Shown: one piece after another, positions 14,367 through 29,982 of the stretch
How positions within the stretch are numbered: position 1 is the stretch's first letter
Layout: each line of letters begins with the position of its first letter
Source of the DNA: a virus
Taxonomy: Duplodnaviria > Caudoviricetes
Strand: one strand, 5' to 3'
Length of the DNA: 64,000 nt
Virus record (IMG/VR): IMGVR_UViG_3300003523_000012
Coordinates: 29,904-93,903 of that record
Made by a program: the position numbers and the translations under genes
The notes under the pieces: generated by a model
Database searches by the model: none
What the model was told of the DNA's origin: nothing
The model's input: the letters and a program-made list of their open reading frames with translations, nothing else

Positions 14367-17246
14367 ATGATTTTAGATTATACTTTTTCAAAGCAAGACA
14401 AGAGATTTGAAGTCTCTTACATTACTGAGAAAGGTCAGAAGTCATTCCTTACTTTTGATAACCTGAGTCGGTTCAAGACTTACTACTACACACCAGCAGG
14501 AGAGTTTGACACTTATGATGGAGCAAAAGCAGGGATATGCTATACTGACTCTCCAAGCAAGTTTGACATCAAGGAGTATCTCACAGAGCTTCCTGACCAA
14601 TACAAAAGCTTGATCTCACAAAAAACTTATCCTAAGTTGTACACATTCGATATTGAGACCAAGATCTCTGAGACTGGTGAGTTCCCAGACCCAGCAATAG
14701 CAAAGCAAGAGATCACAACTATATCTGTTGTGTCTCCAGATTTGAATGCTATAGTGTTTGGAACTAAGGCATTGAGTCAAGAAGAGCTAGCTTATTGTGA
14801 GAAGTCATTCAAGGAATATGTAGAAGCTAATGAATTCTTCCAGACTTTGAAGAAACCTACTCCAACATTCAAATACATATTATGTGACAATGAGAAAGAG
14901 ATGTTGAGATTATTCTTGACAAGGATAGTTGCAAAAGTCTCAATATTAGCTGGTTGGAACTCAATATTGTTTGACTGGCAATATATAGTGAATCGTATAA
15001 AGAACAATTATCCAATGCTTTCTCTTAAGTTAGCTAGTTGCACTAAACAATTGACTAAGAAGAGATTCACATCTCGCTTGGGTGATAAGATTGATCTTCC
15101 TATGCCAGTTCACACTCTTATTCTGGATATGATGGACATCATCAAAGATGACATCACAATCATGCCAATCAAAGAGTCACTTGGACTTGACTATATAGCT
15201 TCAGAGTCAGTGAAAGCTAACAAGATCAAGTATGATGGGACACTTCAAGACTTGTATAACAATGACTATAAGAATTATGTGTTCTACAACTGCATCGACT
15301 CTGTGTTGGTACAATTGATAGACTATAGGTTCCGTTGTCTTGAACTTTATTACCAATATGCTTTGTATTGCAATGAGAAGATAGGGAACTGCTTCTCTCC
15401 TATTGCTCTTACTGAGTCATTAGTGTTCAAAGACTTCTATGAGAATGGAGTCAAGATTGTGTATCAGAAAGCTGAGACACCAGAAAGAACACCATTGATT
15501 GGTGCATATGTAAAAGTCCCAATTCCTGGCAAATACAAGTTCATATGCTGCAATGACTTTGCTTCTCTGTATCCATCAACAATCATCACATGCAACATCT
15601 CATTTGAGAACTATGTTGGTGCATTCTATGATGAAGCTAAGCTTGAGTATTTCAGAAAGCAAGAAGGAAAATATCTGATCATTGGTGGGCAAGTCTACAA
15701 GAATGATGGGAAACCAAATAAGCCATCAATTGGTGAGTTTATTGGAAACTTCATTGATGAGAAGAGACTAGAGAAGTACAAGAAAGACAAGAACTACTTT
15801 GTCAGTGTGAATGGACACGTGTATAGAAATGACAAAGAGTACACATTCAAGAGAATCCAAAGAAAACTTAAAGCTGAGAGGAACATTGACAAGTATCTTG
15901 GCAAGAAGATTGAAGCAGAAGTAGTTACAGATATCAGACATCTCATAAAAGGTGCGGATGAGAAGCTCCATACTTATGAAGCAGACATTATAGAGTCATT
16001 AGAGCAGCTTGGATATAAAGGATATTCTTGTGGTGAAGACTTTAGAAAGCTTTCTGTTGAAGAGTTGAAAGATGCTGAGAGAATAATCTACGCAGAGTGC
16101 AAGTTCAAAGAGTCACATCAGATGGCTATGAAGTTGCTAGGTAACTCAATGTACGGAGGATGCTCACATGTTGCTTTCTATTTCTATAATATGAACTTAG
16201 CAAATGATATCACTGGTGAAGCAAGAAATGTGATTCACATGATGGAGCATCATATTCCTAAGTTCTTTGAAGACAATTGGTTTGATATGAAAGAAGAGCA
16301 CAAGAGATGGGGCATTGAAGTAGACCAGTCACTTAGAGGCAAAGTCAAGAATTTGTGTATACCTATATATGGTGATACTGATTCTATATATTCATCTTAC
16401 CAGAATCTGCTCAAGACTATTAAAGGAATTGACAAGATGACGGATTCAGAAAAATTGAACATCATCTTGAATTTGAACACAGACTTCTTGGACAAGCACA
16501 ATTTTGAGTATATGAGAGACTATTATGCAAAAAGATTTGTAGATTCTGTCCAGAATTTTGAATTAGAGACAATTGCCTCATCTGGAGTGTGGCTCACATC
16601 TAAAAAGAAGTATGCACAGATACTCCTATGGAAAGATGGAACGTTCTATGATGCAGATGATCTCCCAATGAAGATCAAAGGATTGGAAGTTGTGAAGTCT
16701 AGCACATCTAAAGTGGCTAGAACTCAACTCAAAGAGATCATTCGAAGACTTCTTGAGATTAATGACACACCAGAGAATGAGACTCAACTGATGAACATTG
16801 AAGTCCAGAAAAAGAAAAATGAGTTCTTGAAGTGTGATGTTGAGTCAGTTAGTGGAAGCTGCAATGTGAACACTTATAGAAATTATGTCATATCTGATGA
16901 TGGAGATCAGCCAGAGTTCAGGCCAAAAGTCCCATACAATGTTCGTGCATTAGCTTTATATAACAACATTATCAAGAAAAAGCACTTCAAAGAAGAGCCA
17001 ATCTATGCTGGAAAGCTCAAATGGTACATTGTGAAATCTAGAATGAAAACTAAAGACACTCAATATTTTGCATTCCAGTCAAAGAATCTTCCAGATTGGA
17101 GTCAAGACTTTGCACCGATAGACAAAAAGACTATGTTCCAAAAGCAAGTGCTAGACCCATTCAATAGGATCTTGGAATCAATTGGCTATAAGAAACTTGA
17201 GATTGATGGCAATATCCAAACAGATCTGTTTTCACTATTCATGTAG
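14367..17246 (+). CDS. family B DNA polymerase (T4 gp43-like)
   Basis: exonuclease motifs DIET, GWNSILFD, YNCID; polymerase motifs DFASLYPS, KLLGNSMYG, YGDTDS. Confidence 0.97.
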   Translation: MILDYTFSKQDKRFEVSYITEKGQKSFLTFDNLSRFKTYYYTPAGEFDTYDGAKAGICYTDSPSKFDIKEYLTELPDQYKSLISQKTYPKLYTFDIETKISETGEFPDPAIAKQEITTISVVSPDLNAIVFGTKALSQEELAYCEKSFKEYVEANEFFQTLKKPTPTFKYILCDNEKEMLRLFLTRIVAKVSILAGWNSILFDWQYIVNRIKNNYPMLSLKLASCTKQLTKKRFTSRLGDKIDLPMPVHTLILDMMDIIKDDITIMPIKESLGLDYIASESVKANKIKYDGTLQDLYNNDYKNYVFYNCIDSVLVQLIDYRFRCLELYYQYALYCNEKIGNCFSPIALTESLVFKDFYENGVKIVYQKAETPERTPLIGAYVKVPIPGKYKFICCNDFASLYPSTIITCNISFENYVGAFYDEAKLEYFRKQEGKYLIIGGQVYKNDGKPNKPSIGEFIGNFIDEKRLEKYKKDKNYFVSVNGHVYRNDKEYTFKRIQRKLKAERNIDKYLGKKIEAEVVTDIRHLIKGADEKLHTYEADIIESLEQLGYKGYSCGEDFRKLSVEELKDAERIIYAECKFKESHQMAMKLLGNSMYGGCSHVAFYFYNMNLANDITGEARNVIHMMEHHIPKFFEDNWFDMKEEHKRWGIEVDQSLRGKVKNLCIPIYGDTDSIYSSYQNLLKTIKGIDKMTDSEKLNIILNLNTDFLDKHNFEYMRDYYAKRFVDSVQNFELETIASSGVWLTSKKKYAQILLWKDGTFYDADDLPMKIKGLEVVKSSTSKVARTQLKEIIRRLLEINDTPENETQLMNIEVQKKKNEFLKCDVESVSGSCNVNTYRNYVISDDGDQPEFRPKVPYNVRALALYNNIIKKKHFKEEPIYAGKLKWYIVKSRMKTKDTQYFAFQSKNLPDWSQDFAPIDKKTMFQKQVLDPFNRILESIGYKKLEIDGNIQTDLFSLFM

Positions 17247-17321
17247 AAAAATTTAATTATTAAAAATCATAGCTTATTATATATCTTGAATTATAACAAA
17301 AGAAATTTTAATTCCTTTTCA

Positions 17322-17408
17322 ATGACACAAAACTTGCACATAGCAGCCAATATTTATCGCCCAAGTTCACTTAATACAGAATTTGGCAAAGATTGGTCTA
17401 TGCTATAG
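17322..17408 (+). CDS. putative leader peptide MTQNLHIAANIYRPSSLNTEFGKDWSML
   Basis: 28 codons; TAG stop overlaps antiterminator arm GGGCAGG. Confidence 0.6.
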   Translation: MTQNLHIAANIYRPSSLNTEFGKDWSML

Positions 17409-17469
17409 GGCAGGTGGATGTGATTATATAATATCTCTTAAGCCTGCCCAGAAATGAGCAGGTTTTTTT
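17408..17469 (+). terminator. attenuator: terminator gcctgccca-GAAA-tgagcaggt-T tract with competing antiterminator arm
   Basis: gggcagg (17408-17414) is complementary to cctgccc (17443-17449). Confidence 0.7.
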
Positions 17470-17472
17470 GTT

Positions 17473-17501
17473 GTTAAATACCAAAAGGATTGAGATATAT
17501 T
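17473..17501 (+). promoter_or_regulatory. putative phage promoter GTTAA-N18-TATATT
   Basis: motif upstream of first tRNA block. Confidence 0.55.
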
Positions 17502-17591
17502 AGAACCGTTGACGAATGATAAACAACACTCGTTAACTCTAAAGAAACTGAAATATATTGACACTGATGAGTCATTAAAACATCAAATTGA

Positions 17592-17615
17592 GTTCTTTGA
17601 CATATTGGCTAGAAT
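17592..17615 (+). promoter_or_regulatory. boxA-like antitermination element
   Basis: gttctttgacatattggctagaat; 23/24 identical to 22040-22063. Confidence 0.6.
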
Positions 17616-17712
17616 GCATGAATGAAAGAAAATTATTTGGGTGAACCTGAATGAGGAAATGAATTTGATCTGAAAAGATCTACTTATTCAGGAGCCCTTC
17701 ACCCATCACAAT

Positions 17713-17800
17713 AGCATTGTTTGGTTGATGCCGCCGAGGGAGGTATCACGGTTCATATAGAACTCTGAACGGTCTGCTTGCCGGTGTCAAGAACAATGCT
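17713..17800 (+). ncRNA. unassigned structured RNA
   Basis: closing stem agcattgtt/aacaatgct. Confidence 0.45.
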
Positions 17801-17805
17801 CATAT

Positions 17806-17890
17806 GCGCCCGTAGCTCAGTTGGTTTGCGAAAGCTTAGAGTACGTGACTTTTAATCTCGGGGTCGTGGGTTCGAGTCCCACTGGGCGCA
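17806..17890 (+). tRNA. tRNA-Lys(TTT), enlarged D-loop
   Basis: cloverleaf; anticodon loop CTTTTAA. Confidence 0.85.
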
Positions 17891-17895
17891 CAAAA

Positions 17896-17971
17896 GGCAG
17901 CTGACGAGCACTCGGTAGTGCATTGCCTTCGAAAGAAGCGAAGGTACGGTTCAACTCCGTCTCAGAGGCCT
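17896..17971 (+). pseudogene. degenerate tRNA-like element
   Basis: D-arm and T-arm (acggttcaactccgt) present; no regular anticodon arm. Confidence 0.45.
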
Positions 17972-17976
17972 TATTT

Positions 17977-18051
17977 GGGGGAGTAGCTTCAATCGGTTAG
18001 AGCGGCGGCCTGTTAAGCCGATGGTTGTGGGTTCGAGTCCCACCTCCCCCG
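17977..18051 (+). tRNA. tRNA-Asn(GTT)
   Basis: cloverleaf; loop CTGTTAA. Confidence 0.93.
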
Positions 18052-18064
18052 CAAAAAAAAAAAT

Positions 18065-18147
18065 GGGAGTGCGCCAACGATGGTGAGTTGGGGCGGACTG
18101 TAAATCCGTTGCCTTAGGCTTAGTAGGTTCGAATCCTACCACTCCCA
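18065..18147 (+). tRNA. tRNA-Tyr(GTA)
   Basis: loop CTGTAAA; long variable arm. Confidence 0.93.
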
Positions 18148-18166
18148 CGAAATTAATAAGAATAAT

Positions 18167-18239
18167 GGAGCTCTGGTGTAACTGGTGTGCTCGCTGGACT
18201 GAAAATCCAGAGGTCGTCGTTCGAATCGGCGGGGCTCCA
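18167..18239 (+). tRNA. tRNA-Phe(GAA)
   Basis: loop CTGAAAA. Confidence 0.92.
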
Positions 18240-18242
18240 CTA

Positions 18243-18451
18243 AAGTCAAGAACAGACCACCAAGTAGCGATCGGGGTAAGTCTTATAATAATGTCGACTT
18301 AGTTTGAGATGTTGTCTCGGAGCGTAAGAGCTGCCGTCAGCCCGATGAACGGTGTTGGTATCGTGAGGTGCCATAGGATGCAACGCAACAGTGCAGTTTG
18401 TGAAGAGCATATAATCAATACACTGCCATTGCTCGTAAATTTTCTTGACTT
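18243..18451 (+). ncRNA. unassigned ~210-nt structured RNA
   Basis: closing stem aagtcaagaa/ttcttgactt; GC-rich internal hairpins. Confidence 0.55.
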
Positions 18452-18457
18452 ATTTTT

Positions 18458-18532
18458 AGGGAGTTAGCTCAGAGAGAAGAGTGTCACTGAACGTGGAGGT
18501 GAAGGTCGGTGGTTCGATTCCATCACTCCCAA
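18458..18532 (+). ncRNA. tRNA-like RNA with irregular anticodon loop
   Basis: acceptor, D and T arms present; loop tgaacgtggag. Confidence 0.55.
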
Positions 18533-18759
18533 CAAATGTCTTTCTTTGGTGTAATCTTGCAATGAATTAGTTACACTTGAACCAGATTATCAAACACCGG
18601 TTGTAGATATTCTAAGTTTGGTGTGACATGTTCAAAACTGATCCAGAGAGTTTTGTGAGAAGCGGCCGCTTCTCACACGACACGAAGAGTACCAGAATAG
18701 CATACCTGTCATGGGACAGGAGATGAGATAGCAGTAATGTCTCAAGTTAGACTTTTTTT

Positions 18760-18843
18760 GGAGAATTAACTGCAGCGGCCTGCAGACCGGTCTTGAAAAC
18801 CGTGGGAGTGTAACAGCTTGGGGATCGACACCTCAGTTCTCCG
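18760..18843 (+). tRNA. tRNA-Ser(TGA)
   Basis: loop CTTGAAA; long variable arm. Confidence 0.9.
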
Positions 18844-18853
18844 CAAATATTTT

Positions 18854-18927
18854 GGACCTATAGTCCCAGTGGTCTAGGATGCCTGACTGTCTATCAGGAG
18901 GCCCGGGTTCGAGTCCCGGTAGGTCCG
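18854..18927 (+). tRNA. tRNA-Asp(GTC)
   Basis: loop CTGTCTA. Confidence 0.93.
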
Positions 18928-18933
18928 CTTTTT

Positions 18934-19006
18934 GCCGGTATAGCTCAATTGGCAGAGCGCCGCATTTGTAATGCGATGGTTGTGGGTTCGATTCCCTCTA
19001 CCGGCT
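18934..19006 (+). tRNA. tRNA-Thr(TGT)
   Basis: loop TTTGTAA. Confidence 0.92.
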
Positions 19007-19012
19007 CAAAAT

Positions 19013-19073
19013 GGAAGTCATACAGCAAATCTTAAAAACTTCTAATGGTGTAGAAAAGAAAATTGACTTCTGA
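19013..19073 (+). ncRNA. ACAGCAA-stem small RNA (Y RNA-like candidate)
   Basis: ggaagtca-tACAGCAA...tgacttct-ga. Confidence 0.65.
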
Positions 19074-19076
19074 ATT

Positions 19077-19149
19077 GCCTTTGTAGCTCAATAGGTAGAG
19101 CTGGATCCTCTTAAGATCAGGGCTAAGGGTTCGAGTCCCTTCGAAGGCA
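19077..19149 (+). tRNA. tRNA-Lys(CTT)
   Basis: loop CTCTTAA. Confidence 0.9.
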
Positions 19150-19155
19150 CAAAAT

Positions 19156-19230
19156 GGTCCCTTAGCTCAGTTTGGTTAGAGCGCCTGACTCATAATCAGA
19201 TGGTCGTAGGTTCAAGTCCTACAGGGACCA
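19156..19230 (+). tRNA. tRNA-CAT (probably Ile2)
   Basis: loop CTCATAA; GGTCCCT acceptor. Confidence 0.85.
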
Positions 19231-19243
19231 CAAAAATAAACAT

Positions 19244-19318
19244 TGCGGGATAGAGCAGTGGTCTTAGCTCGTCAGGCTCATAACCTGGAGGTCGGGGGTT
19301 CGAATCCCTCTCCCGCTA
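19244..19318 (+). tRNA. tRNA-fMet(CAT)
   Basis: unpaired 1:72; initiator-type D arm tagagcagtggt. Confidence 0.88.
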
Positions 19319-19324
19319 CAAAAT

Positions 19325-19398
19325 GGGCCCATAGTGATAGTTGGTTAGCACGGAAGCTTTGCAAGCTTTTAGCCTGGGTTCGAGTCCCAGTGGGTCCA
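19325..19398 (+). tRNA. tRNA-Ala(TGC)
   Basis: loop TTTGCAA; G3:U70. Confidence 0.93.
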
Positions 19399-19406
19399 CA
19401 AGAACA

Positions 19407-19479
19407 TGGGTCTTTAGTATAATTGGTAGTATGGTGGTCTCCAAAACCATTGGTTGAGGTTCGAATCCTTGAGGGCCTG
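19407..19479 (+). tRNA. tRNA-Trp(CCA)
   Basis: loop CTCCAAA. Confidence 0.9.
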
Positions 19480-19485
19480 CAATAT

Positions 19486-19593
19486 TACAATATGGTGTAA
19501 TGGTAACACACTCCTCATGCGGGATCGGATCGCGCACCGAATGAAGTTCTTAAATGAGCTAAGAGATGTGGGTTCAACCCCCACTATTGTATC
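19486..19593 (+). ncRNA. tRNA-like RNA with large insertion replacing the anticodon arm
   Basis: tacaata/tattgta acceptor; D arm gtgtaatggtaacac; T arm gtgggttcaacccccac. Confidence 0.6.
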
Positions 19594-19625
19594 AAATTAT
19601 GTCTAACAAATTAAATTCAAAAAAG

Positions 19626-19676
19626 ATGAAAAAGTACACACAACTGTAGGTTTGTATCTTAGATGTTCCTCCGTAA
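19626..19676 (+). CDS. putative regulatory minigene MKKYTQL*(TAG)VCILDVPP
   Basis: A-rich leader, ATG, internal TAG at 19647, ends Pro-Pro-TAA. Confidence 0.4.
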
Positions 19677-19742
19677 TTAAGATGATTTTCTATTAAAAGT
19701 AATCAATTCAAAAATTCATTATTCAAATAAAAAATCATCAAA

Positions 19743-20165
19743 ATGAAAAAAGAACAATTTTTAAGATTCAAAGAAGACCTCAAGAAAGAGGCAAAAGAGC
19801 AAAAAGAATTAAAGAACCAAAGAAAATTTGTCCACATTAAAGGTAAGAGGACAATTAATCCTTATGATGCAGCTTGGAAAGTAAGATCGAATAGATGGGA
19901 GCTTGATAAGAAGTATGTCATCTATTATATCTTTAAACATAGAATTGAGGTGACATCATACAACAAGGAACAGGTAATCTGGGATGCATATGTGAAACTG
20001 CATCAGCAATACAGTACCGCTCGCAGAGAACTCACTCTGACAAACGGCAAGAAGCAAATTAGTTATTACATCGACGCTCCAGACGGCCGTGACTACACTC
20101 CTGAGGATGCAATGTATGATTTGATCAAAAGATATGACAAGATTATCAAACAATATGGGAACTAA
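19743..20165 (+). CDS. hypothetical basic protein
   Basis: 140-aa ORF inside RNA island. Confidence 0.8.
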   Translation: MKKEQFLRFKEDLKKEAKEQKELKNQRKFVHIKGKRTINPYDAAWKVRSNRWELDKKYVIYYIFKHRIEVTSYNKEQVIWDAYVKLHQQYSTARRELTLTNGKKQISYYIDAPDGRDYTPEDAMYDLIKRYDKIIKQYGN

Positions 20166-20463
20166 TCATTAGAAAAAATCTCGCCTTTACGTGATCATTG
20201 ATGAATCTTTAGATCCTATATATGGATGTGTTCAAGGTGGACATGCTGTTGCTCAATATCTCTTAGAGAATCCTGATTCCAAATGGAAGAACAATTATCT
20301 TATCTATTTGAAAGCTAATTTAGAAAGAATTGTTGTTAAACTCCAAAGATATGGAATATGTTATACTGAGTTCCACGAACCAGACCTGGATGGGAAGCTC
20401 ACTGCAATAGCGGTGCTTGACAATCAAAAGGTCTTTAGGAATCTACATTTAATAGGAAGCTAA
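20155..20463 (+). CDS. PTH2-like peptidyl-tRNA hydrolase with in-frame TAG at codon 6
   Basis: RLYVII...VQGGHAVAQY...W.N..LIYL...FHEPDLDGKLTAIA; ATG 20155 overlaps upstream stop; TAG 20170-20172. Confidence 0.7.
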
Positions 20464-20503
20464 GGCTTGTATTAAATAAAAAGGGAGCTAAGGCTCCCGA
20501 TTT

Positions 20504-20575
20504 GCTCGGTTAGTTCAATTGGCAGAACAAGTGGCCCTAACCCACATGACACGGGTTCGAACCCTGTACCGGGCA
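20504..20575 (+). tRNA. amber suppressor tRNA (anticodon CTA)
   Basis: cloverleaf; gtgg-CCCTAAC-ccac anticodon arm; C33 instead of U33. Confidence 0.75.
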
Positions 20576-20584
20576 CATTTTTAT

Positions 20585-20657
20585 GGCGCCATCGTCTAGA
20601 GGCCTAGGACACCAGATTTTCATTCTGGGAACCCCGATTCGAATTCGGGTGGTGCTA
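20585..20657 (+). tRNA. tRNA-Glu(TTC)
   Basis: loop TTTTCAT. Confidence 0.92.
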
Positions 20658-20799
20658 CAAAGAATATAAGATTGCAGCAATACTAGTTAGGCTGGTCTTT
20701 CCGTGAGAGTCGGACGTATATCCTGCAACGATAGCGATGATCCCGACGCATTGGTTGGTGTAGCAAAGGACGTCCAGAGGTAGCTCCTCTGGAATTAAA

Positions 20800-20872
20800 C
20801 TTCCTATAGTTCAATGGATTAGAACGTAGGTCTACGGAACCTTAGATGGGGGTTCGAGTCCCTCTAGGAAGA
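20800..20872 (+). tRNA. tRNA-Arg(ACG)
   Basis: loop CTACGGA. Confidence 0.92.
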
Positions 20873-20881
20873 CTAACATAT

Positions 20882-20955
20882 TGCGGGATGGACTGGAGAG
20901 GTTCCAGCTGGGTCTCATAAGCCCAATGACGGGGGTTCGATTCCCTCTCCCGCTA
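20882..20955 (+). tRNA. tRNA-Met(CAT), initiator-like
   Basis: loop CTCATAA; GGG/CCC anticodon stem; unpaired 1:72. Confidence 0.85.
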
Positions 20956-21092
20956 CTAATTCATCTATACCGATAATTCAGTTGATAATTCTAGATGAGT
21001 CTTCTGATGTTGGGGGTTACTAGTGGATGTATTGACGAGTATATAAGCTAGTTATAAAAAACGTGGTTCGATACCTCAATAGGTGGCTAATT

Positions 21093-21183
21093 AGAGAGAT
21101 ACCCAAGTTGGTGAAGGGACCAGTTTGCTAAACTGGCAGGGCAGCTAATCACTGTCGCGTGGGTTCGAGCCCCACTCTCTCTG
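21093..21183 (+). tRNA. tRNA-Ser(GCT)
   Basis: loop TTGCTAA; long variable arm. Confidence 0.92.
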
Positions 21184-21196
21184 CAAAGAATTATAT

Positions 21197-21321
21197 GGGG
21201 CGGTGGTGAAATTAGTAAAAAAGCTCCACTGCATGAATGGTGGTGATACTGCAAAGATTAAAAGGTATACACACAAATTCTGTTAAATTTGAAAATGTTG
21301 GTTCGAGTCCAACCCGCCCCA
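21197..21321 (+). ncRNA. tRNA-like RNA with ACTGCAA-stem insertion in D-loop
   Basis: ggggcgg/ccgcccc acceptor; T arm gttggttcgagtccaac; ~50-nt D-loop insert. Confidence 0.6.
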
Positions 21322-21326
21322 CTTAT

Positions 21327-21450
21327 AGGGAGATAGTGTAATGTATGGTAGCACGCGTTAATTTTATGACTTTTAATATGAAAGTCTAACAGCAATTAAT
21401 GTAAATGTCTTTGGTGTAACGTAGTGAAGGTTCGAATCCTTCTCTCCCTG
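21327..21450 (+). ncRNA. tRNA-like RNA with ACAGCAA-stem insertion in anticodon arm
   Basis: agggaga/tctccct acceptor; insert gacttt...aaagtc-taACAGCAA. Confidence 0.7.
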
Positions 21451-21455
21451 CTAAC

Positions 21456-21576
21456 CATGCAGTAGCTCAGTTGGTAGAGCACGTTTTTTGTGACTCTTGT
21501 AGAAGCGTGAGTCCTACAGCAATTGATTTTTGTCCTTCCAAGACCGGGGTCGTGGGTTCGAGTCCCACCTGCATGG
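21456..21576 (+). ncRNA. tRNA-like RNA with ACAGCAA-stem insertion in anticodon arm
   Basis: canonical D and T arms; insert gactc-ttg...gagtc-ctACAGCAA. Confidence 0.7.
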
Positions 21577-21584
21577 CTTTATAT

Positions 21585-21658
21585 GGTGTTAGTAGCTCAG
21601 TTGGTAGAGCGCTAGATTGTGGTTCTAGTGGTCGCAGGTTCGATCCCTGTCTAACACA
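21585..21658 (+). tRNA. tRNA-His(GTG)
   Basis: loop TTGTGGT; G-1 present. Confidence 0.92.
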
Positions 21659-21668
21659 CAAATCAAAA

Positions 21669-21775
21669 TGAGACTGGTTGGAGGCATTGGCCTCATTCGG
21701 CGCTCTTCAATTGAAGAGAGACATCCGGCGCGAACTTGGTCAGGAAAGGACGTGAGTAACACGGAATCAGTCTCA
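21669..21775 (+). ncRNA. unassigned ~107-nt structured RNA
   Basis: closing stem tgagactggtt/aatcagtctca. Confidence 0.55.
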
Positions 21776-21779
21776 AATT

Positions 21780-21853
21780 GCGGGAGTAGCTCAGTTGGCT
21801 AGAGCGGAACCTTGCCAAGGTCCAGGTCGGGGGTTCGAGTCCCCTCTCCCGCT
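21780..21853 (+). tRNA. tRNA-Gly(GCC)
   Basis: loop TTGCCAA. Confidence 0.93.
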
Positions 21854-21855
21854 CA

Positions 21856-21958
21856 AATTCGCCGATAGGCATATCCTAGGCCGCCTCTGATGGCGGAATA
21901 ACCAGTATCTTATATAATTTATCATCTCAAGAATAAACCGCCATCAGGCGGAAAATTT
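21856..21958. repeat. dispersed GC-rich element, copy 3
   Basis: tggcggaataaccagt...tataatttatcatctcaa.aataaaccgccatcaggcgg shared with copy 4. Confidence 0.85.
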
Positions 21959-21964
21959 ATTGGT

Positions 21965-21992
21965 GTTAACTTCTGAAATTGTTGTATATATT
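21965..21992 (+). promoter_or_regulatory. putative phage promoter GTTAA-N17-TATATT
   Basis: exact motif before second tRNA block. Confidence 0.7.
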
Positions 21993-22039
21993 ATGATTGC
22001 TGAGGTAAATAACTATACTGAAGCAATTATTATACATAA

Positions 22040-22063
22040 GTTCTTTGACATACTGGCTAGAAT
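22040..22063 (+). promoter_or_regulatory. boxA-like antitermination element
   Basis: gttctttgacatactggctagaat. Confidence 0.6.
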
Positions 22064-22065
22064 TA

Positions 22066-22205
22066 AAGATATCCGAAAAGGGATCGGGAGGTTCTCACAA
22101 ACCAGAAACCCTGAGGCTGATGGTCCAGAATTGCGAGAGCAATTCTGGACCATCAGTCGACAGCTCACTGGGTAATTCCCAAGGAACGCTGTTAGGCGAG
22201 AAATA
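22066..22205 (+). ncRNA. unassigned structured RNA with 20-bp GAGA-capped hairpin
   Basis: ggctgatggtccagaattgc-gaga-gcaattctggaccatcagtc (22115-22158). Confidence 0.5.
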
Positions 22206-22206
22206 T

Positions 22207-22278
22207 TGAGCTGTGGTATAATTGGCAACACGTCGGGTTTTGGTCCCGAAGTTCTGGGTTCGAGTCCCGGCAGCTCAA
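22207..22278 (+). tRNA. tRNA-Gln(TTG)
   Basis: loop TTTTGGT. Confidence 0.92.
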
Positions 22279-22285
22279 CAAAAAT

Positions 22286-22358
22286 GTCCGAGTGTCCGAA
22301 TTGGCTTAGGTGACGGTCTGCAAAACCGTCTATGCAGGTTCAAGTCCTGTCTCGGACT
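22286..22358 (+). tRNA. tRNA-Cys(GCA)
   Basis: loop CTGCAAA; U73. Confidence 0.93.
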
Positions 22359-22374
22359 CTTAGGAAAATAATAT

Positions 22375-22449
22375 GCGCAGGTAGCTCAGTTGGTTTAGAG
22401 CACTTGTCTGATACACAAGAGGTCGAAGGTTCGATTCCTTCTCTGCGCA
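22375..22449 (+). tRNA. tRNA-Ile(GAT)
   Basis: loop CTGATAC. Confidence 0.92.
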
Positions 22450-22455
22450 CTGAAT

Positions 22456-22522
22456 GGAAGCCTTACAGCAAATTTTTCAGCACTAATTTATAAACTAGGA
22501 ACGCTTAAAATGGGGCTTCTGA
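22456..22522 (+). ncRNA. ACAGCAA-stem small RNA (Y RNA-like candidate)
   Basis: ggaagcc-ttACAGCAA...ggcttct-ga. Confidence 0.65.
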
Positions 22523-22526
22523 ACTT

Positions 22527-22598
22527 GCGGGTATAGCACAACGGTTAGTGTAAGAGATTTCCAATCTTTTGATGTGGGTTCGATTCCCATTACCCGCT
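22527..22598 (+). tRNA. tRNA-Gly(TCC)
   Basis: loop TTTCCAA. Confidence 0.92.
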
Positions 22599-22827
22599 CT
22601 AGAGGTGAAATGATATACCCTCTCAATGATGGCAGTGTAACGTGTTGCACATACTTGTGAGTGGATGAGTCCCATCATTGCCCTGATCTAGGATCAGTTT
22701 CCATATTTTATACACAACTCCATTTCGGCAATACATTCCTCGAAGCCGTTATCACACATAAGACAAACCAGAGAAGGAGAGAGGGCGATGCAATGGTTGA
22801 AGCGATGAATTATATAAAGAGACTAAG

Positions 22828-23073
22828 AATGACACTCATTGGACGTATAAGAAGTCCCTTGAGAAAGATACTCAGTGTGCCTCGAGAGAGTGTATCATTA
22901 AAAGGTAAAAGCCGTGAACAGGTGTGTGGAGTTCTCAAGTGAAAAATTCCGTAATTAGCGGTAGAGAGAATATAAGCACCACGGATGTAGCACTGATTGA
23001 ATGCTAGACAAATCGATAGGGGTTCTACCTCATCCCCGATAATCAGTCTGGATTCTGACTGGTGAGTGTCATT
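22828..23073 (+). ncRNA. unassigned ~245-nt structured RNA
   Basis: 15-bp closing stem aatgacactcattgg/ctggtgagtgtcatt. Confidence 0.55.
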
Positions 23074-23083
23074 TCTTTTTTAT

Positions 23084-23157
23084 GCACTTGTAGCCCAACT
23101 GGCAGAGGCCTATGACTTAGGATCATAAAAGTGTGAGTTCGAATCTCACCAGGTGCA
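23084..23157 (+). tRNA. tRNA-Leu(TAG), short variable arm
   Basis: loop CTTAGGA. Confidence 0.88.
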
Positions 23158-23161
23158 CTAT

Positions 23162-23235
23162 GTTCCAGTAGCCCAACTGGCAGAGGCAATAGTTTGAGGG
23201 ACTATACAGTGGCAGTTCGAATCTGCCTTGGAACA
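23162..23235 (+). tRNA. tRNA-Leu(GAG), short variable arm
   Basis: loop TTGAGGG. Confidence 0.88.
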
Positions 23236-23246
23236 CAAATTAATAT

Positions 23247-23319
23247 CTAGGTGTAATTCAGTTGGTAGAATGCTAGAATTGGGATCTAGTTGTCGTCCGT
23301 TCGAGTCGGATCACCTAGA
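23247..23319 (+). tRNA. tRNA-Pro(TGG)
   Basis: loop ATTGGGA. Confidence 0.9.
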
Positions 23320-23375
23320 CGAAGAGATGTCAAGCTCGAGTTAAAAAATTTCGACAAATTGTTTATTATCATAAT

Positions 23376-24359
23376 ATGATGGATAAAAAAGTATTTGAAA
23401 TATTTAACTCGAGCTATTCAAAAATAGAATTGTGTAAAAATCTTGATTTAGATGTATCTCACATGAATGGAAGTAATGTTGATAAATTACTAAATAAGAT
23501 TATGAAAGATTCTGATTTTGAAATGGATATTACTGCTAACGGTTTTAAAGAAAGGCGTTTAGCCAGAGAAAAAAAGAAATGGGAAAAAGAACAACCAAAA
23601 TGTAAATTTTGTGGAAAAGTTCTTCCATTTGAAAGAAGATTTAATAAATTTTGTAGTTCTAGTTGTTCTGCTAAAAGTGGAAATAAACAAAGAGCTAAAA
23701 ATGGTTATACTTCAAAAGGTAAAACAAAAAAAGTTAATTGTTTAAAGTGTAATAAAGAAATTGAAGTAAATATCAATTGTGGACAAAAATCTTATTTTTG
23801 TAAAGAGTGTAGACCTAAATCTGTAAATAGTCTTAGACTAATTGAACATACTTGTATAATTTGTGGAAAAAAATATTTTACTAAAAGATATATTTCTAAT
23901 CATTGCTCACCAAAATGTTCAGCAGCAGATCCAAACATTAGAAAAAAGATTAGTGAAACTCAATTACAACACGTAAAAGATGGAACTCATAAAGGTTGGA
24001 CATCTAGAAATATTAGATCTTATCCTGAAAAATTCTTTGAACAAGTATTAAAGAATAATTTTATAGAATTCAAACAAGAAGTCTATATAGAAAAATTCAA
24101 ATATTTCTTAGATTTTCTTATAGAAATTGGTAATAATAAAATTGATCTTGAAATAGATGGTAAACAGCATAAATATGATGATAGAAAAGATAAAGATGTT
24201 GAAAGAGATCAAAATCTTAAAAATGCTGGATATATCATTTATAGAATAGAATGGAATGAGATAAATTCTAAAGAAGGTAAGACAAAAATGAAAGAGAAAA
24301 TTAATAAATTTTTAGAGTTTATTGAACAATATAAATTAGCCCAGTACTCCAATAGGTAG
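23376..24359 (+). CDS. free-standing endonuclease: Zn-ribbon repeats plus DUF559/Vsr-like PD-(D/E)XK domain
   Basis: multiple CxxC; YFLDF...LEIDGKQH...DVERDQNLKNAGY; AT-rich. Confidence 0.8.
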   Translation: MMDKKVFEIFNSSYSKIELCKNLDLDVSHMNGSNVDKLLNKIMKDSDFEMDITANGFKERRLAREKKKWEKEQPKCKFCGKVLPFERRFNKFCSSSCSAKSGNKQRAKNGYTSKGKTKKVNCLKCNKEIEVNINCGQKSYFCKECRPKSVNSLRLIEHTCIICGKKYFTKRYISNHCSPKCSAADPNIRKKISETQLQHVKDGTHKGWTSRNIRSYPEKFFEQVLKNNFIEFKQEVYIEKFKYFLDFLIEIGNNKIDLEIDGKQHKYDDRKDKDVERDQNLKNAGYIIYRIEWNEINSKEGKTKMKEKINKFLEFIEQYKLAQYSNR

Positions 24360-24411
24360 AGGGAGTCGGCTCAAACCCGATACAGTGTGAGTTCGAATCT
24401 CACCTGGGCTA
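24338..24411 (+). tRNA. tRNA-Leu(CAA), short variable arm
   Basis: loop CTCAAAC; overlaps end of endonuclease ORF. Confidence 0.87.
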
Positions 24412-24440
24412 CAAACAGAATACCTATCTGCAATAGGCAT

Positions 24441-24597
24441 GATACATTCACAGCAATGCTTTATCCCAGAAGGTGTAACTCAAATGGACTAGAGTCTTGA
24501 CATCCTGAAGAATAGCAGCTCTTTTTAGGGAAGTGTCATAGAGATCCGGGTTCGAATCCCGGCACCCTCAGATCTTAGATCCTTTATAATGTATTGA
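24441..24597 (+). ncRNA. ACAGCAA-stem RNA enclosing a tRNA-like domain
   Basis: gatacatt-cACAGCAA...aatgtatt-ga around D arm and ccgggttcgaatcccgg T arm. Confidence 0.65.
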
Positions 24598-24610
24598 TTC
24601 TGTATTTTTT

Positions 24611-24684
24611 GTCGGTGTAGCGGAGCTGGTTTCTTGCGCCGCTCTCATAAGGCGGAGACGGTGGTTCGATTCCACCCACCGGCA
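24611..24684 (+). tRNA. tRNA-Met(CAT)
   Basis: loop CTCATAA. Confidence 0.88.
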
Positions 24685-24701
24685 CGAAAGTGAAAAAAGC
24701 T

Positions 24702-24771
24702 ATGGCATGTAGCTCAGTTGGTAGAGTGGACAATATCTTGTCAGGTCGCTAGTTCAAGTCTAGCCATGATA
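24702..24771 (+). pseudogene. tRNA-like element with collapsed anticodon loop
   Basis: canonical D/T arms; gacaa-tatc-ttgtc 4-nt loop; poor acceptor pairing. Confidence 0.5.
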
Positions 24772-24828
24772 AATAGTTTGTATCGCTTCACATGGTACCT
24801 AGTCGTTGTGATACACGCTTTCTCGCGA

Positions 24829-24902
24829 GGGCTGTTAGTTTAGCTTGGTAAGAATATCTGGCTTACATCCAGGAGACTACGGTTCAAATCCGTGACGGCC
24901 CA
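24829..24902 (+). tRNA. tRNA-Val(TAC)
   Basis: loop CTTACAT. Confidence 0.92.
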
Positions 24903-25027
24903 CTATTAAAAGTAGGACAGTTAGTTAACGGCTAATTGAGATTGATTCCATATAAATCTCTAACTACTTTTGTTATTTTATATATAAGGTTACCGTTAAT
25001 AACCTTATTCAATAAAGTTAAAAAAAT

Positions 25028-25954
25028 ATGGACAATCAAAAATTTATTTGTGAAAATTGCGGTTTAGAACATAATAGAAGTTATGGTTCTGGACGTTTTT
25101 GCTCTGAAAAATGTGCTAAAAGTTATTCAACTAAAAATGAATCTAAAAAATTAAAAGAAGCAAATTGTATTATTTGTGGAAGAAAAATACACATAAATAA
25201 AAGAGCATCAACAAAAACTTGCAAATGTGAAAAATGTCAAAAACTACATCATAAACCATCTGATTTAAAAATATGTAAGATATGTGGTAAGAAATACTAT
25301 AAACAAGATGGATGTTCAAATCAATTTTGTAAAAATCATAATTTAAATGGATTCAAACTACTTATACAATATTTTGGATTTGATGAATCAAAACTTGGTA
25401 CTATAGAAGTTGAAAATGAATTTTTAAGAATTAAGAATTTGATACATAATTTATACTGGAAAGATAATTTATCCAGTAAAGATATAGCTGAAAAATTTAA
25501 CTTTAAAAGCAAACATTCACTTATTCAAACAGTATTCAAGTTTTTAGATATACCATCTAGAAATTTTAAACAATCAACTTCAAATGCTTACTATACTAGA
25601 AAAATGTGTAGTATTTTAAAAAATCAATATAAATCAGAATGGCATACAACATGGAATGGAAAAGAAGTTTATCTTAGAAGTTCATTTGAAAGTGATTATG
25701 CTAAAGAATTAGATGCCAATGAAATTGATTATGATGTTGAATACCTTAGAATAAAATATTTCAATACTAATAAAAATGAGTATAGATGTGCAATACCAGA
25801 TTTTTATCTTCCAGAAACAAATACAATTGTTGAAATAAAATCTAATTGGACATTAAATATTCAAGAAATGAAAGATAAAAAGAAAGCGTATTTGGAACAA
25901 GGATATAATTTTAAATTGATTCTTGATCATAAAGAAATAGATTTGCCTTTGTAG
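25028..25954 (+). CDS. free-standing endonuclease: Zn-ribbon repeats plus TnsA-like PD-(D/E)XK domain
   Basis: CxxC repeats; YLRSSFE...PDFYL...VEIKS. Confidence 0.8.
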   Translation: MDNQKFICENCGLEHNRSYGSGRFCSEKCAKSYSTKNESKKLKEANCIICGRKIHINKRASTKTCKCEKCQKLHHKPSDLKICKICGKKYYKQDGCSNQFCKNHNLNGFKLLIQYFGFDESKLGTIEVENEFLRIKNLIHNLYWKDNLSSKDIAEKFNFKSKHSLIQTVFKFLDIPSRNFKQSTSNAYYTRKMCSILKNQYKSEWHTTWNGKEVYLRSSFESDYAKELDANEIDYDVEYLRIKYFNTNKNEYRCAIPDFYLPETNTIVEIKSNWTLNIQEMKDKKKAYLEQGYNFKLILDHKEIDLPL

Positions 25955-26017
25955 CTTAATCGGTAGAGCAGCTGTTTAGTAATCAGCAGGTCGTGGGTTC
26001 AAATCCCTCCATCGGCT
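25945..26017 (+). tRNA. tRNA-Thr(AGT)
   Basis: loop TTAGTAA; two acceptor-stem mismatches; overlaps ORF end. Confidence 0.75.
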
Positions 26018-26020
26018 CAA

Positions 26021-26360
26021 AGCTGGCGTCAATGACGCTCTGGTGAAAGGATGTTTGGACGAGGGTTCGACTCCCTCCGGGTCCACTATGATTCTATAGA
26101 ATCACAATTAGCTTATCAACCAAGATGTTGAGAAAGTTAAGATTTGCGAGAACTTAATATGAGACTCGTGATTCAGCGCACTAGCCGGCTGCGTAATTGC
26201 TGGCTTTATAATTGGGCCCGTTTGGTTTTGACAGCATTTGAGTAAGAAGAGAAGAGATGCTGGTGAGTAAGAATAATTCACAAATCTTACACAACTCGTC
26301 TTGCTGCGTAGTCTAGGACTATAGCAATGAGAGGTCTAGGGTGGCACCAAAGTCCACCCA
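26021..26360 (+). ncRNA. ssrA: circularly permuted (two-piece) tmRNA
   Basis: acceptor piece ...ggacgagggttcgactccctc-cgggtccA (ends 26085) precedes coding piece gggcccg-tttggttttgac (starts 26214); G3:U70; tag HKSYTTRLAA* at 26279-26311. Confidence 0.85.
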
Positions 26361-26366
26361 TTTTTT

Positions 26367-26440
26367 GGCTCGGTAGCCCAACTGGCAGAGGCATCAGACT
26401 TAAACCCTGTATAGTGTGAGTTCGAATCTCACTCGGGCCA
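26367..26440 (+). tRNA. tRNA-Leu(TAA), short variable arm
   Basis: loop CTTAAAC; weak anticodon stem. Confidence 0.8.
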
Positions 26441-26450
26441 CTTTTTTCTC

Positions 26451-26478
26451 GTTAACTTCTATCTTATTGATATATATT
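26451..26478 (+). promoter_or_regulatory. putative phage promoter GTTAA-N17-TATATT
   Basis: exact motif. Confidence 0.7.
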
Positions 26479-26508
26479 AGACATGTAATAACCAATAATA
26501 TTAAGAAT

Positions 26509-26808
26509 ATGAATGTATATAGAATTATTAGTAGATGTAAAGTATCAGATTGGGGATGCCATGATTTCTCTGTTGAGACTGAGGTCTATGACTCTGTTGA
26601 AGAAGCAAAAGAGGACTATCCTAAATTTGATGAGACTTCTTCACGTGCTATTGAAGAGTATGATATGGAAGAGTACTATATACTTGGAACAGCTAAGCAA
26701 ATCCAAGACACTTATGACCGTGGCAAATGGTATGATTTGTGTGGTGATGAAGATGAGATTGAAGCTCATGCGAAAGAGTTCACTTATGAAGTCGATAACC
26801 TTGAATAG
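26509..26808 (+). CDS. hypothetical acidic protein
   Basis: ATG at 26509 after promoter; longer annotated start lies inside a tRNA. Confidence 0.75.
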   Translation: MNVYRIISRCKVSDWGCHDFSVETEVYDSVEEAKEDYPKFDETSSRAIEEYDMEEYYILGTAKQIQDTYDRGKWYDLCGDEDEIEAHAKEFTYEVDNLE

Positions 26809-26834
26809 TAAAAATATTAAGTCATGTGCAAGTT

Positions 26835-27104
26835 ATGAAATCAATATTAAAATTTATTAATGAATCTGAAAAGAAATATGATAATTTTCTTAATTTGCCT
26901 CCTATAACAGAATTAGGAGATGGTGAATATGATTGTGCTATTTGGGGACACAGTGTTGCTTATGACGGTAAGAAATATTATTCAGAAATTGGTATAATGA
27001 ATATTTATCCTATCAAGATAAAGATAATCATCAAAGATAAAAAAGAAAGATTTGGAGATTCAGATAATCTTCAAAGAGCGGAATTAAAAAAACTTTTCGA
27101 TTAA
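26835..27104 (+). CDS. hypothetical protein with T4 capsid-targeting-like N-terminus
   Basis: MKSILKFINE-S. Confidence 0.6.
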   Translation: MKSILKFINESEKKYDNFLNLPPITELGDGEYDCAIWGHSVAYDGKKYYSEIGIMNIYPIKIKIIIKDKKERFGDSDNLQRAELKKLFD

Positions 27105-27187
27105 TTATAATCACTATCAAATCTATATAGTTAGAAATGGTGGGAAGAAATTGAAAAGCAAAAGTTGAACTAATAAAAATAAAGACT

Positions 27188-27463
27188 ATGTGCAAATATT
27201 GTGAAGCTTTGACATCGGACAAGATGGATTCATACCATCACAAATATAGAGAATTACTTCCTATCACTACCGATACTAGAGACTATAGTGAGTATGATTC
27301 AATGGCAGTAATCATGCCTCCAACACCTATCTCTTTGAGACGACATGAAGAAGATGGTTTGGTATCTAATTTGAATGTGTTCTTCTATGATGATCATGCA
27401 CGAGTGGTGAACTTTTGGATCCCTATCAAGTATTGCCCAATGTGTGGAAAGGAGATACAATAG
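27188..27463 (+). CDS. small Zn-binding phage protein
   Basis: MCKYC...IKYCPMCG. Confidence 0.8.
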   Translation: MCKYCEALTSDKMDSYHHKYRELLPITTDTRDYSEYDSMAVIMPPTPISLRRHEEDGLVSNLNVFFYDDHARVVNFWIPIKYCPMCGKEIQ

Positions 27464-27524
27464 ATTTTAGAAATTCTTAAAAATAGAAGATGTTTGGAAA
27501 AGAAAAGGAAGTAAAATATAATAT

Positions 27525-27596
27525 GCCCTTGTAGTTCAATAGATAGAATAGCGGTCTTCTAAACCGTTGATAGGAGTGCAATTCTTCTCAGGGGTA
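27525..27596 (+). tRNA. tRNA-Arg(TCT)
   Basis: loop CTTCTAA; T loop gtgcaat. Confidence 0.85.
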
Positions 27597-27634
27597 CTAA
27601 CAGATCCAATTATATGGATCAAAAATAGAATCAT

Positions 27635-27663
27635 GTTAAATTCTAGCCAGTAATGTATATATT
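27635..27663 (+). promoter_or_regulatory. putative phage promoter GTTAA-N18-TATATT
   Basis: motif upstream of TROVE-like gene leader. Confidence 0.55.
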
Positions 27664-27681
27664 ATAAGCGAACCTTCTAAT

Positions 27682-27820
27682 GGAAGACATACAGCAAAGT
27701 TCAATCTATATTTTAATCAGATCAATAAAAATTGTACTTTGTTTCACAGAAGGCGATGATTCAAAAGGTCTAAAGTCGCTCCAGTTTACGAACTGAAAAA
27801 CAAGACCTTAAATCTTCTGG
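27682..27820 (+). ncRNA. ACAGCAA-stem RNA in leader of TROVE-like gene
   Basis: ggaaga-catACAGCAA...tcttct-gg; outer stem gaaccttc/gaaggttc. Confidence 0.65.
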
Positions 27821-27841
27821 GAAGGTTCACTTTTATTAAAT

Positions 27842-27917
27842 GATAGTCGTACAGCAAAATTATTTATAAATTCTGTACCATTTTATATTAACGGAAAAAC
27901 CACAAAAGACTATTGAA
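27842..27917 (+). ncRNA. ACAGCAA-stem RNA abutting start codon of TROVE-like gene
   Basis: gatagtc-gtACAGCAA...gactatt-gaa, then ATG at 27920. Confidence 0.65.
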
Positions 27918-27919
27918 GT

Positions 27920-29550: not shown

Positions 29551-29581
29551 AGAGCTCAAGAGAAATCTTGGGCTCTTTTTT
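29551..29581 (+). terminator. intrinsic terminator
   Basis: agagctcaaga-gaaa-tcttgggctct plus T tract. Confidence 0.8.
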
Positions 29582-29883: not shown

Positions 29884-29982
29884 CGCCGCTAGGCGGACAT
29901 AGGATGGCGCCTATTGGCGGAATAACCAGTACCTGATATAATTTATCATCTCAAAAATAAACCGCCATCAGGCGGCAAATTT
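29884..29982. repeat. dispersed GC-rich element, copy 4
   Basis: near-identical to copy 3 and reverse complement of copy 1. Confidence 0.85.

Follow-up and report, generated by a model that had tools for sequence, protein, structure and literature searches.

A probable leader-peptide transcription attenuator ahead of the tRNA genes of a phage with a complete tRNA set

Amino-acid operons of enterobacteria are controlled by leader attenuators, some of which are multivalent as in ilvGMEDA (Ile/Leu/Val) and thr (Thr/Ile), and trpL and hisL belong to the same group. In E. coli the pheST leader attenuator uses Phe codons to control an operon of the translation apparatus. Here we describe a large family of phage switches, apparently not yet published, in which the leaders use the codons of tRNAs encoded downstream, together with an extreme case in which one leader stands ahead of a complete tRNA set. 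Like the ilv, thr, trp and his leaders, the phage units have a short leader ORF and a terminator whose 5' arm can alternatively pair with an upstream arm. The logic would also be the same, with a ribosome at the leader end leading to termination, a stalled ribosome leading to readthrough and the codons naming what the operon supplies. The phage units differ from these leaders in being phage-borne, in regulating tRNAs and not biosynthetic enzymes, and in devoting one or two codons to each of numerous tRNAs instead of using runs of one codon. Unlike in trp, no protector (1:2) hairpin was found and the default without translation would be readthrough; the Rfam leader models score below threshold on the phage units. 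With pheST they share leader attenuation of the decoding machinery and a feedback through charged tRNA, whereas pheST senses a single amino acid and controls a synthetase and the phage units control tRNA genes. T-box riboswitches are similar as terminator/antiterminator switches that answer to tRNA status, but they bind the uncharged tRNA directly and need no ORF, whereas the signal of the phage family lies in a reading frame.

A cryptic long tRNA operon has been described in Anabaena sp. PCC 7120, which is silent until translation is impaired and is controlled by the repressor TrcR (PMC8421152, PMC10272220). Like the phage arrays it is an accessory tRNA array, and it is switched on under translational stress; unlike them it is cellular and uses a transcriptional repressor protein, where the phage units have a leader peptide and a terminator. 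In a literature search we found no published account of leader-peptide attenuation of tRNA genes, the Anabaena operon being the nearest case. Why phages carry tRNA genes and how these genes are controlled is an open question. If the reading proposed here is true, phages monitor how fast each codon is decoded and produce a tRNA block only while its own codons are read slowly, and there would be a testable direct link between phage tRNAs and the shortage or destruction of host tRNAs. The leader alone would then predict which tRNAs matter to a phage, and such a unit would represent a naturally occurring, compact sensor for translation capacity.

The source of the sequence is a 64 kb window (the whole stretch of DNA that was analysed) within a 93.9-kb virus record, with a G+C content of 35%. 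It encodes 32 tRNA genes between 17814 and 27597, which serve all 20 amino acids and lie on the same strand as a DNA polymerase gene. The stop codon of the polymerase and the first tRNA are separated by 567 non-coding bases, and the leader is located in this spacer. The main features of the locus are:

14367..17246, + strand: family-B DNA polymerase gene ending with a TAG stop (Pfam DNA_pol_B and exonuclease domain matches)
17322..17408, + strand: leader ORF with 28 sense codons, ATG at 17322 and TAG at 17406-17408 (ORF list)
17592..17616, + strand: conserved box GTTCTTTGACATATTGGCTAGAAT preceding tRNA block 1, repeated at 22040
17814..21854, + strand: tRNA block 1 with 18 tRNAs, the leading six being Lys, Asn, Tyr, Phe, Asp and Thr
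22040..22064, + strand: box, second copy, preceding tRNA block 2
22207..27597, + strand: tRNA block 2 with 14 tRNAs, Cys and Val among them

A match to the permuted-tmRNA model of Rfam lies inside the tRNA array (26026-26311; 56.8 bits, threshold 47).

The initial annotation had described the leader as an ORF of 28 codons, 25 of them different, that covers 18 amino acids and lacks Cys and Val, and a recount gave identical figures. At least 25 distinct codons are expected with a probability of 0.009 from the codon usage of the phage, 0.006 from real 28-codon windows of its genes and 0.042 from random intergenic composition, and at least 18 amino acids with a probability of about 0.013 (0.001-0.004 jointly with codon diversity), all of these values belonging to a diversity statistic that was picked post hoc, after looking at the leader. 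ORFs of 24-40 codons are common in the spacer between polymerase and tRNAs. No homologue of the leader was found in the protein database, and a 40-codon version starting at a TTG likewise had none among called proteins. The leader models of Pfam and NCBIfam (TnaC-type arrest peptides) gave no match to the window leader or to nine other leaders at E values up to 10. We infer that the leader ORF is translated in the window phage.

The RNA downstream of and including the ORF can adopt two competing folds, which are built from the following elements:

17340..17405, + strand: hairpin within the leader ORF, a candidate pause structure that leaves the antiterminator arm unsequestered (minimum-free-energy folds)
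17407..17416, + strand: antiterminator 5' arm, containing GGGCAGG (17408-17414, beginning on the G of the TAG), which forms a duplex with 17441-17450
17441..17450, + strand: shared arm, containing CCTGCCC (17443-17449), used either as the antiterminator 3' arm or as the terminator 5' arm
17441..17469, + strand: intrinsic terminator with a hairpin at 17441-17464 (about -11 kcal/mol) and T7 at 17463-17469

That the TAG overlaps GGGCAGG and that this motif can pair with CCTGCCC of the terminator had been pointed out before, and both the coordinates and the duplex energy of -17.4 kcal/mol agree with it. For the arm pairing 17407-17416/17441-17450 shuffled upstream sequence gave -7.7 ± 2.3 kcal/mol and reached the observed value in 5 of 5000 shuffles. 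The complete antiterminator hairpin is predicted at -19.6 kcal/mol and the terminator at -11.0 kcal/mol; unbound RNA folds as the antiterminator and the terminator is absent from it. Masking 17400-17416 or 17400-17421, as a ribosome at the stop codon would cover them, resulted in the terminator fold, which bears out the attenuator geometry suggested for this site. The 181-nt region as a whole folds with a z of -4.16, and none of 200 shuffles folded equally well. With about -11 kcal/mol the terminator of the window is weaker than the plain terminators of the same phage (-15.5 to -17.5 kcal/mol). A protector (1:2) pairing, which would cause termination without translation, was not found in the folds of the window, and the arm is not taken up by the hairpin at 17340-17405 within the ORF. 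As there is no protector hairpin, readthrough would be the default state without translation.

These folds have to be weighed against the possibility that the structure is a plain intrinsic terminator, which ends the polymerase transcript and insulates a tRNA promoter, with the ORF and the upstream arm being chance features. The hairpin and its T-run are indeed located 195 nt past the polymerase stop, and ordinary terminators follow other genes of the phage. The frequency of ORFs of 24-40 codons in the spacer and the post hoc choice of the diversity statistic also speak for a plain terminator, as do the promoter-like motifs and the conserved box downstream. However, an alternative pairing that appears in just 5 of 5000 shuffles and a free RNA that forms no terminator are both at odds with it, and the comparison with other phages given below makes this explanation unlikely.

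A pair of terminator and antiterminator alone leaves the agent that flips it unspecified, and the hairpins could also be under the control of a non-ribosomal factor, either an RNA-binding antiterminator protein or a tRNA bound in a T-box-like manner, with the ORF being irrelevant. A GGUGG stretch in the loop, which we take to recall T-box sequences faintly, could be counted in favour of such a factor. Against it, a search with the T-box model (RF00230) gave no Rfam match at E values up to 1 within 17000-28500, and the sole match to any leader or riboswitch model of Rfam was Trp_leader (RF00513) with 23.7 bits (threshold 41, E = 0.37). Moreover, the codon signal of the family, which is specific for one reading frame (see below), argues for decoding, and we regard switching by a non-ribosome factor as very unlikely.

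Close relatives of the polymerase were found in the protein search (P0001-P0008, 82-98% identity). Scans for relatives gave either 46-48% identity or nothing among viral sequences, one locus with 48% identity in metagenomes and one locus with 22% identity in genomes. Among the phages in GenBank nothing exceeded a polymerase identity of about 30% and there was no DNA match except for a tRNA, and exact-pattern scans with the arms of the window and with its box variant gave no match. An intein domain (PF14890) is present in several polymerase homologues, both close and distant (P0007, P0008, P0045, P0057 and P0081), and the polymerase of the window does not contain it.

The phage G001, whose polymerase shows 46% identity, carries an array of 37 tRNAs elsewhere in its genome and behind a different gene. 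At the head of this array we found the same three-arm layout with arm sequences that differ from those of the window. Here, an ORF has its TGA inside a 9-nt arm, and a 31-nt loop, the complementary arm and a third arm with seven T follow. A box that is nearly identical to the boxes at 17592 and 22040 of the window is located 138 nt 3' of the G001 terminator.

Scans of viral contigs, with the box alone and with a T-run ahead of the box, resulted in >200 loci. A unit was defined as the nearest hairpin with a T-run at most 260 nt upstream of the box together with the longest ATG ORF ending at most 75 nt from the hairpin. This rule yields 131 units in 122 phage loci, with the ORF being present in 128 of them. 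On one strand they show the order short ORF, three-arm terminator/antiterminator, GTTCTTTGACA box and tRNA block, and the window holds all of these elements in the same order. Among the leaders there are 80 distinct peptides, of which 41 are non-redundant, and their length is 20-54 codons (median 31). Pairing between the terminator 5' arm and the sequence upstream has a median of -11.0 kcal/mol in the units and of -7.0 kcal/mol in 186 other terminators from the same loci (P = 2e-10). The family is characterized by the third arm, with arm sequences that vary between the phages. In one subfamily compensatory changes were observed in both helices, and one column changes jointly in all three arms. 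The leader stop lies at a median of 19 nt past the start of the first arm (interquartile range 11-25). For a plain terminator one has to explain why the combination of an ORF with three arms recurs behind a different gene at the head of the G001 array and in 131 units, and why the third arm is absent from ordinary terminators.

Within subfamilies the leaders keep their frame, their length and some residues, and the changes are synonymous; between subfamilies the peptides are not conserved and follow the tRNA sets. The former observation would also be expected if the ORF encoded a functional small protein with a terminator of its own. The latter is against it, as is the lack of any homologue or protein family, and we consider a small protein extremely improbable. 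When 469 short ORFs were ranked with a profile built from 74 family leaders, the window leader was not in the top 8. Peptide homology between the window leader and the family was therefore dropped, and its membership in the family rests on architecture.

The motif NLHI near the start is common to the window leader and family leaders, an anecdotal similarity. Many leaders begin with MKNLHI or MK...KH although their own arrays contain no Asn, His or Lys tRNAs (examples are L083:1628-1699:+, L088:155-226:+ and L031:1921-1986:-). This conserved MK..H start is not explained by codon matching, and an excess match is absent from the first three codons. The leader L061:9396-9485:+ appears to us to resemble TnaC from E. 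coli, presumably in LHI, WF and VD.R.P and in an equal Trp-to-Pro spacing. An identity with TnaC was rejected for this leader, as its closest relative has neither Trp nor Pro and no leader model of Pfam or NCBIfam matched.

In order to compare the leaders with the tRNAs that follow them, we used a set of 37 non-redundant units. The fraction of leader codons that can be read by the own downstream array was 0.535, compared to 0.392 ± 0.015 for shuffled pairings (z 9.4; 0 of 20000 permutations), and the match to the own array was above the shuffled pairings in 33 of the 37 units. The readable fraction was also 0.16 above that of the local proteome (P = 3e-10). This signal is confined to the frame of the ORF, with the other five frames (two sense, three antisense) showing z values from -2.4 to 0.7, which indicates that the leader sequence is selected as codons. 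Between 5 and 12 codons ahead of the first arm the excess match amounts to 0.27-0.33, and it drops to 0.08 in the last four codons and 0.02 within or after the arm. Such a position fits the ribosome footprint because the antiterminator can be favoured only by stalls in which the arm stays exposed.

In 31 of 40 units no amino acid served by the array is missing from the leader, and leader and array correlate in their amino-acid counts (rho 0.45, P = 0.004; with the window excluded 0.42, P = 0.008). One leader of the family contains all 20 amino acids in 27 codons, and the window ranks fourth of 41. The suggestion that the leader samples many tRNAs is thus supported at the level of the family, where 37 units match their own arrays in a frame- and position-specific manner and leader diversity rises with array diversity. 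It had also been proposed that related phages keep codon diversity but not the peptide. Here, the match to the array is what is kept, whereas amino-acid diversity across the family is just mildly raised (mean z 0.52) with many leaders below expectation, and high codon diversity was discarded as a strong family trait in itself. Leaders are diverse because they match diverse arrays, so that the sampling of codons follows from codon matching.

For the window leader the most relevant region would be the following:

17370..17396, + strand: probable sensing window, codons 17-25 (L NTEFGKDW), with eight consecutive codons read by block-1 tRNAs, at the position of the family excess

All codons from 18 to 25 (NTEFGKDW) are readable by tRNAs of block 1, and five of the six leading tRNAs of the array (Lys, Asn, Phe, Asp and Thr) read codons in this stretch. 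Counted at 5-12 codons before the arm of the window, seven of eight codons are read by block 1 (P = 0.053), and for the whole leader the number is 17 of 27 (P = 0.21). With respect to the match to the tRNA set, the leader is readable to 85% and the proteome to 84%, meaning that the match is saturated; as the tRNA set is complete, the overall codon match of the window cannot exceed the background. Cys and Val, which are absent from the leader, have their tRNAs in block 2 behind the second box. With a complete array behind it, the window leader marks the near-pan-codon extreme of the family.

This saturation leaves room for a ribosome-dependent switch that gauges translation in general, i.e. the availability of ribosomes, their coupling to RNA polymerase or how far the infection has advanced, and for which the codon content of the window would be immaterial. 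A codon match indistinguishable from background in the presence of a complete tRNA set is what such a gauge predicts, and readthrough as the default without translation as well as the MK..H start of many leaders, which is unrelated to their arrays, fit to it. We nevertheless find it quite unlikely, since the identity of the codons in the family tracks the own array, and does so at stall-competent positions only, and since the diversity of the window leader fits the trend with array diversity.

From these data we propose that a ribosome-mediated (leader-peptide) transcription attenuator is located ahead of the phage tRNA genes, a reading to which we assign a probability of roughly 0.7, and that tRNA output is probably raised when the leader codons are read slowly. 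RNA polymerase would arrive from the polymerase gene, from a promoter in 17247-17321 or from both, and would transcribe the leader. If translation runs smoothly to the end of the leader, the ribosome would cover 17407-17416, and 17441-17450 would then form the terminator and transcription would stop at the T-run. If a charged tRNA is scarce, the ribosome would stall earlier, most effectively at codons 17-25, and the GC-rich arms would pair as the antiterminator, and transcription would pass the box at 17592 and enter the tRNA array. The antiterminator would also form if no ribosome is loaded, again resulting in readthrough. Phage tRNAs made in this way would relieve the stall and close a negative feedback loop on tRNA supply. 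The leader might therefore act as a broad gauge of decoding capacity; it carries codons for 18 amino acids because the array serves all 20. We infer that stalling alters readthrough, including the direction and the size of this effect. An attack by anticodon nucleases as the trigger is speculation.

The stop codon of the leader adds a further aspect, as a short extension is encoded behind it:

17409..17423, + strand: extension in case the TAG is suppressed (GRWM, then TGA; reading-frame translation)

As stated in the initial annotation and confirmed in the sequence, amber readthrough of the leader gives GRWM before the TGA at 17421-17423 and leads across the antiterminator arm. This TGA is located 14 nt past the start of the arm, within the interquartile range of the leader stops of the family. 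A tRNA with the anticodon CTA is encoded in the array of the window (20504-20576), and the TAG of the polymerase is in frame with the leader ORF with no stop in between (17244-17423). Genome-wide recoding of TAG was ruled out, as TAG is an ordinary stop with which 16 of 90 long genomic ORFs end. One might imagine a pan-tRNA gauge that also tests the amber suppressor of the phage, with the leader TAG being one more sensed codon. In this case the ribosome would cross the antiterminator arm up to the TGA at 17421 when the tRNA-CUA of the array is present and the array would be off, while the loss of any tRNA, e.g. by host anticodon nucleases, would turn the array on. Given the shared frame, ribosomes that suppress the TAG of the polymerase would enter the same gauge. 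We regard this extension of the model as doubtful.

Apart from the leader itself, two regions of the spacer might contain promoters:

17247..17321, + strand: A-rich region 5' of the leader, putative own promoter
17470..17591, + strand: spacer between terminator and box, candidate further promoter (sigma-70-like matches)

Other family members show a TTG...TAnnTTTG-like motif 25-45 nt 5' of the leader ATG, and its counterpart in the window, TATATCTTG, is imperfect. Judged from such a motif, the leader possibly has a promoter of its own in 17247-17321. Promoter motifs of relatives hint at a host among the Bacteroidota. Terminator and box are 131 nt apart in the window and 138 nt apart in G001; in the family this distance has a median of 22 nt, and its 90th percentile is 102 nt. 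The initial annotation had already cautioned that a promoter-like motif lies just past the terminator (17473), and a second promoter in the 131-nt spacer could make the attenuator a minor input to the tRNA island.

The box itself has a length of 20-25 nt (GTTCTTTGACATAYTGG, followed by TAAAA or CTAGAA) and is nearly invariant in >200 phage contigs (loci L010-L217). In other phages it is often found 2-9 nt 5' of a tRNA, between tRNAs or directly after the leader terminator. We rejected it as an ordinary promoter, as the spacing of the hexamers is wrong for sigma-70 and the -7 motif of Bacteroidetes is absent. L093, a relative without a leader, has a Bacteroidetes-type promoter about 25 nt 5' of the box, which suggests that the box is transcribed; it is more likely a transcribed element than a promoter. 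Presumably it resembles the boxA of rrn operons.

Several further elements were observed around the array. A G+C-rich structured RNA of about 190 nt lies between the box and the first tRNA of the window (17620-17810), and such a region was also noted in L009 (~10700-10880, minus strand). Part of it is a GGGTGA...TCACCC hairpin with ACAA behind it, which occurs twice at the same place in G001. A repeat of about 60 nt that ends in the hairpin CCGCCATCAGGCGG is present in the window at ~21890-21955 and 29915-29975, and a related CCGCCATCTAGGGCGGGCTGAG element is found in further intergenic regions, additional sites being at ~40655 and ~60410. Finally, GTTA or GTTG regularly follows 3' of the T-runs of the terminators of this phage (TTTTTGTTAAT-like), as seen at 29577, 35952, 36135 and 17469.
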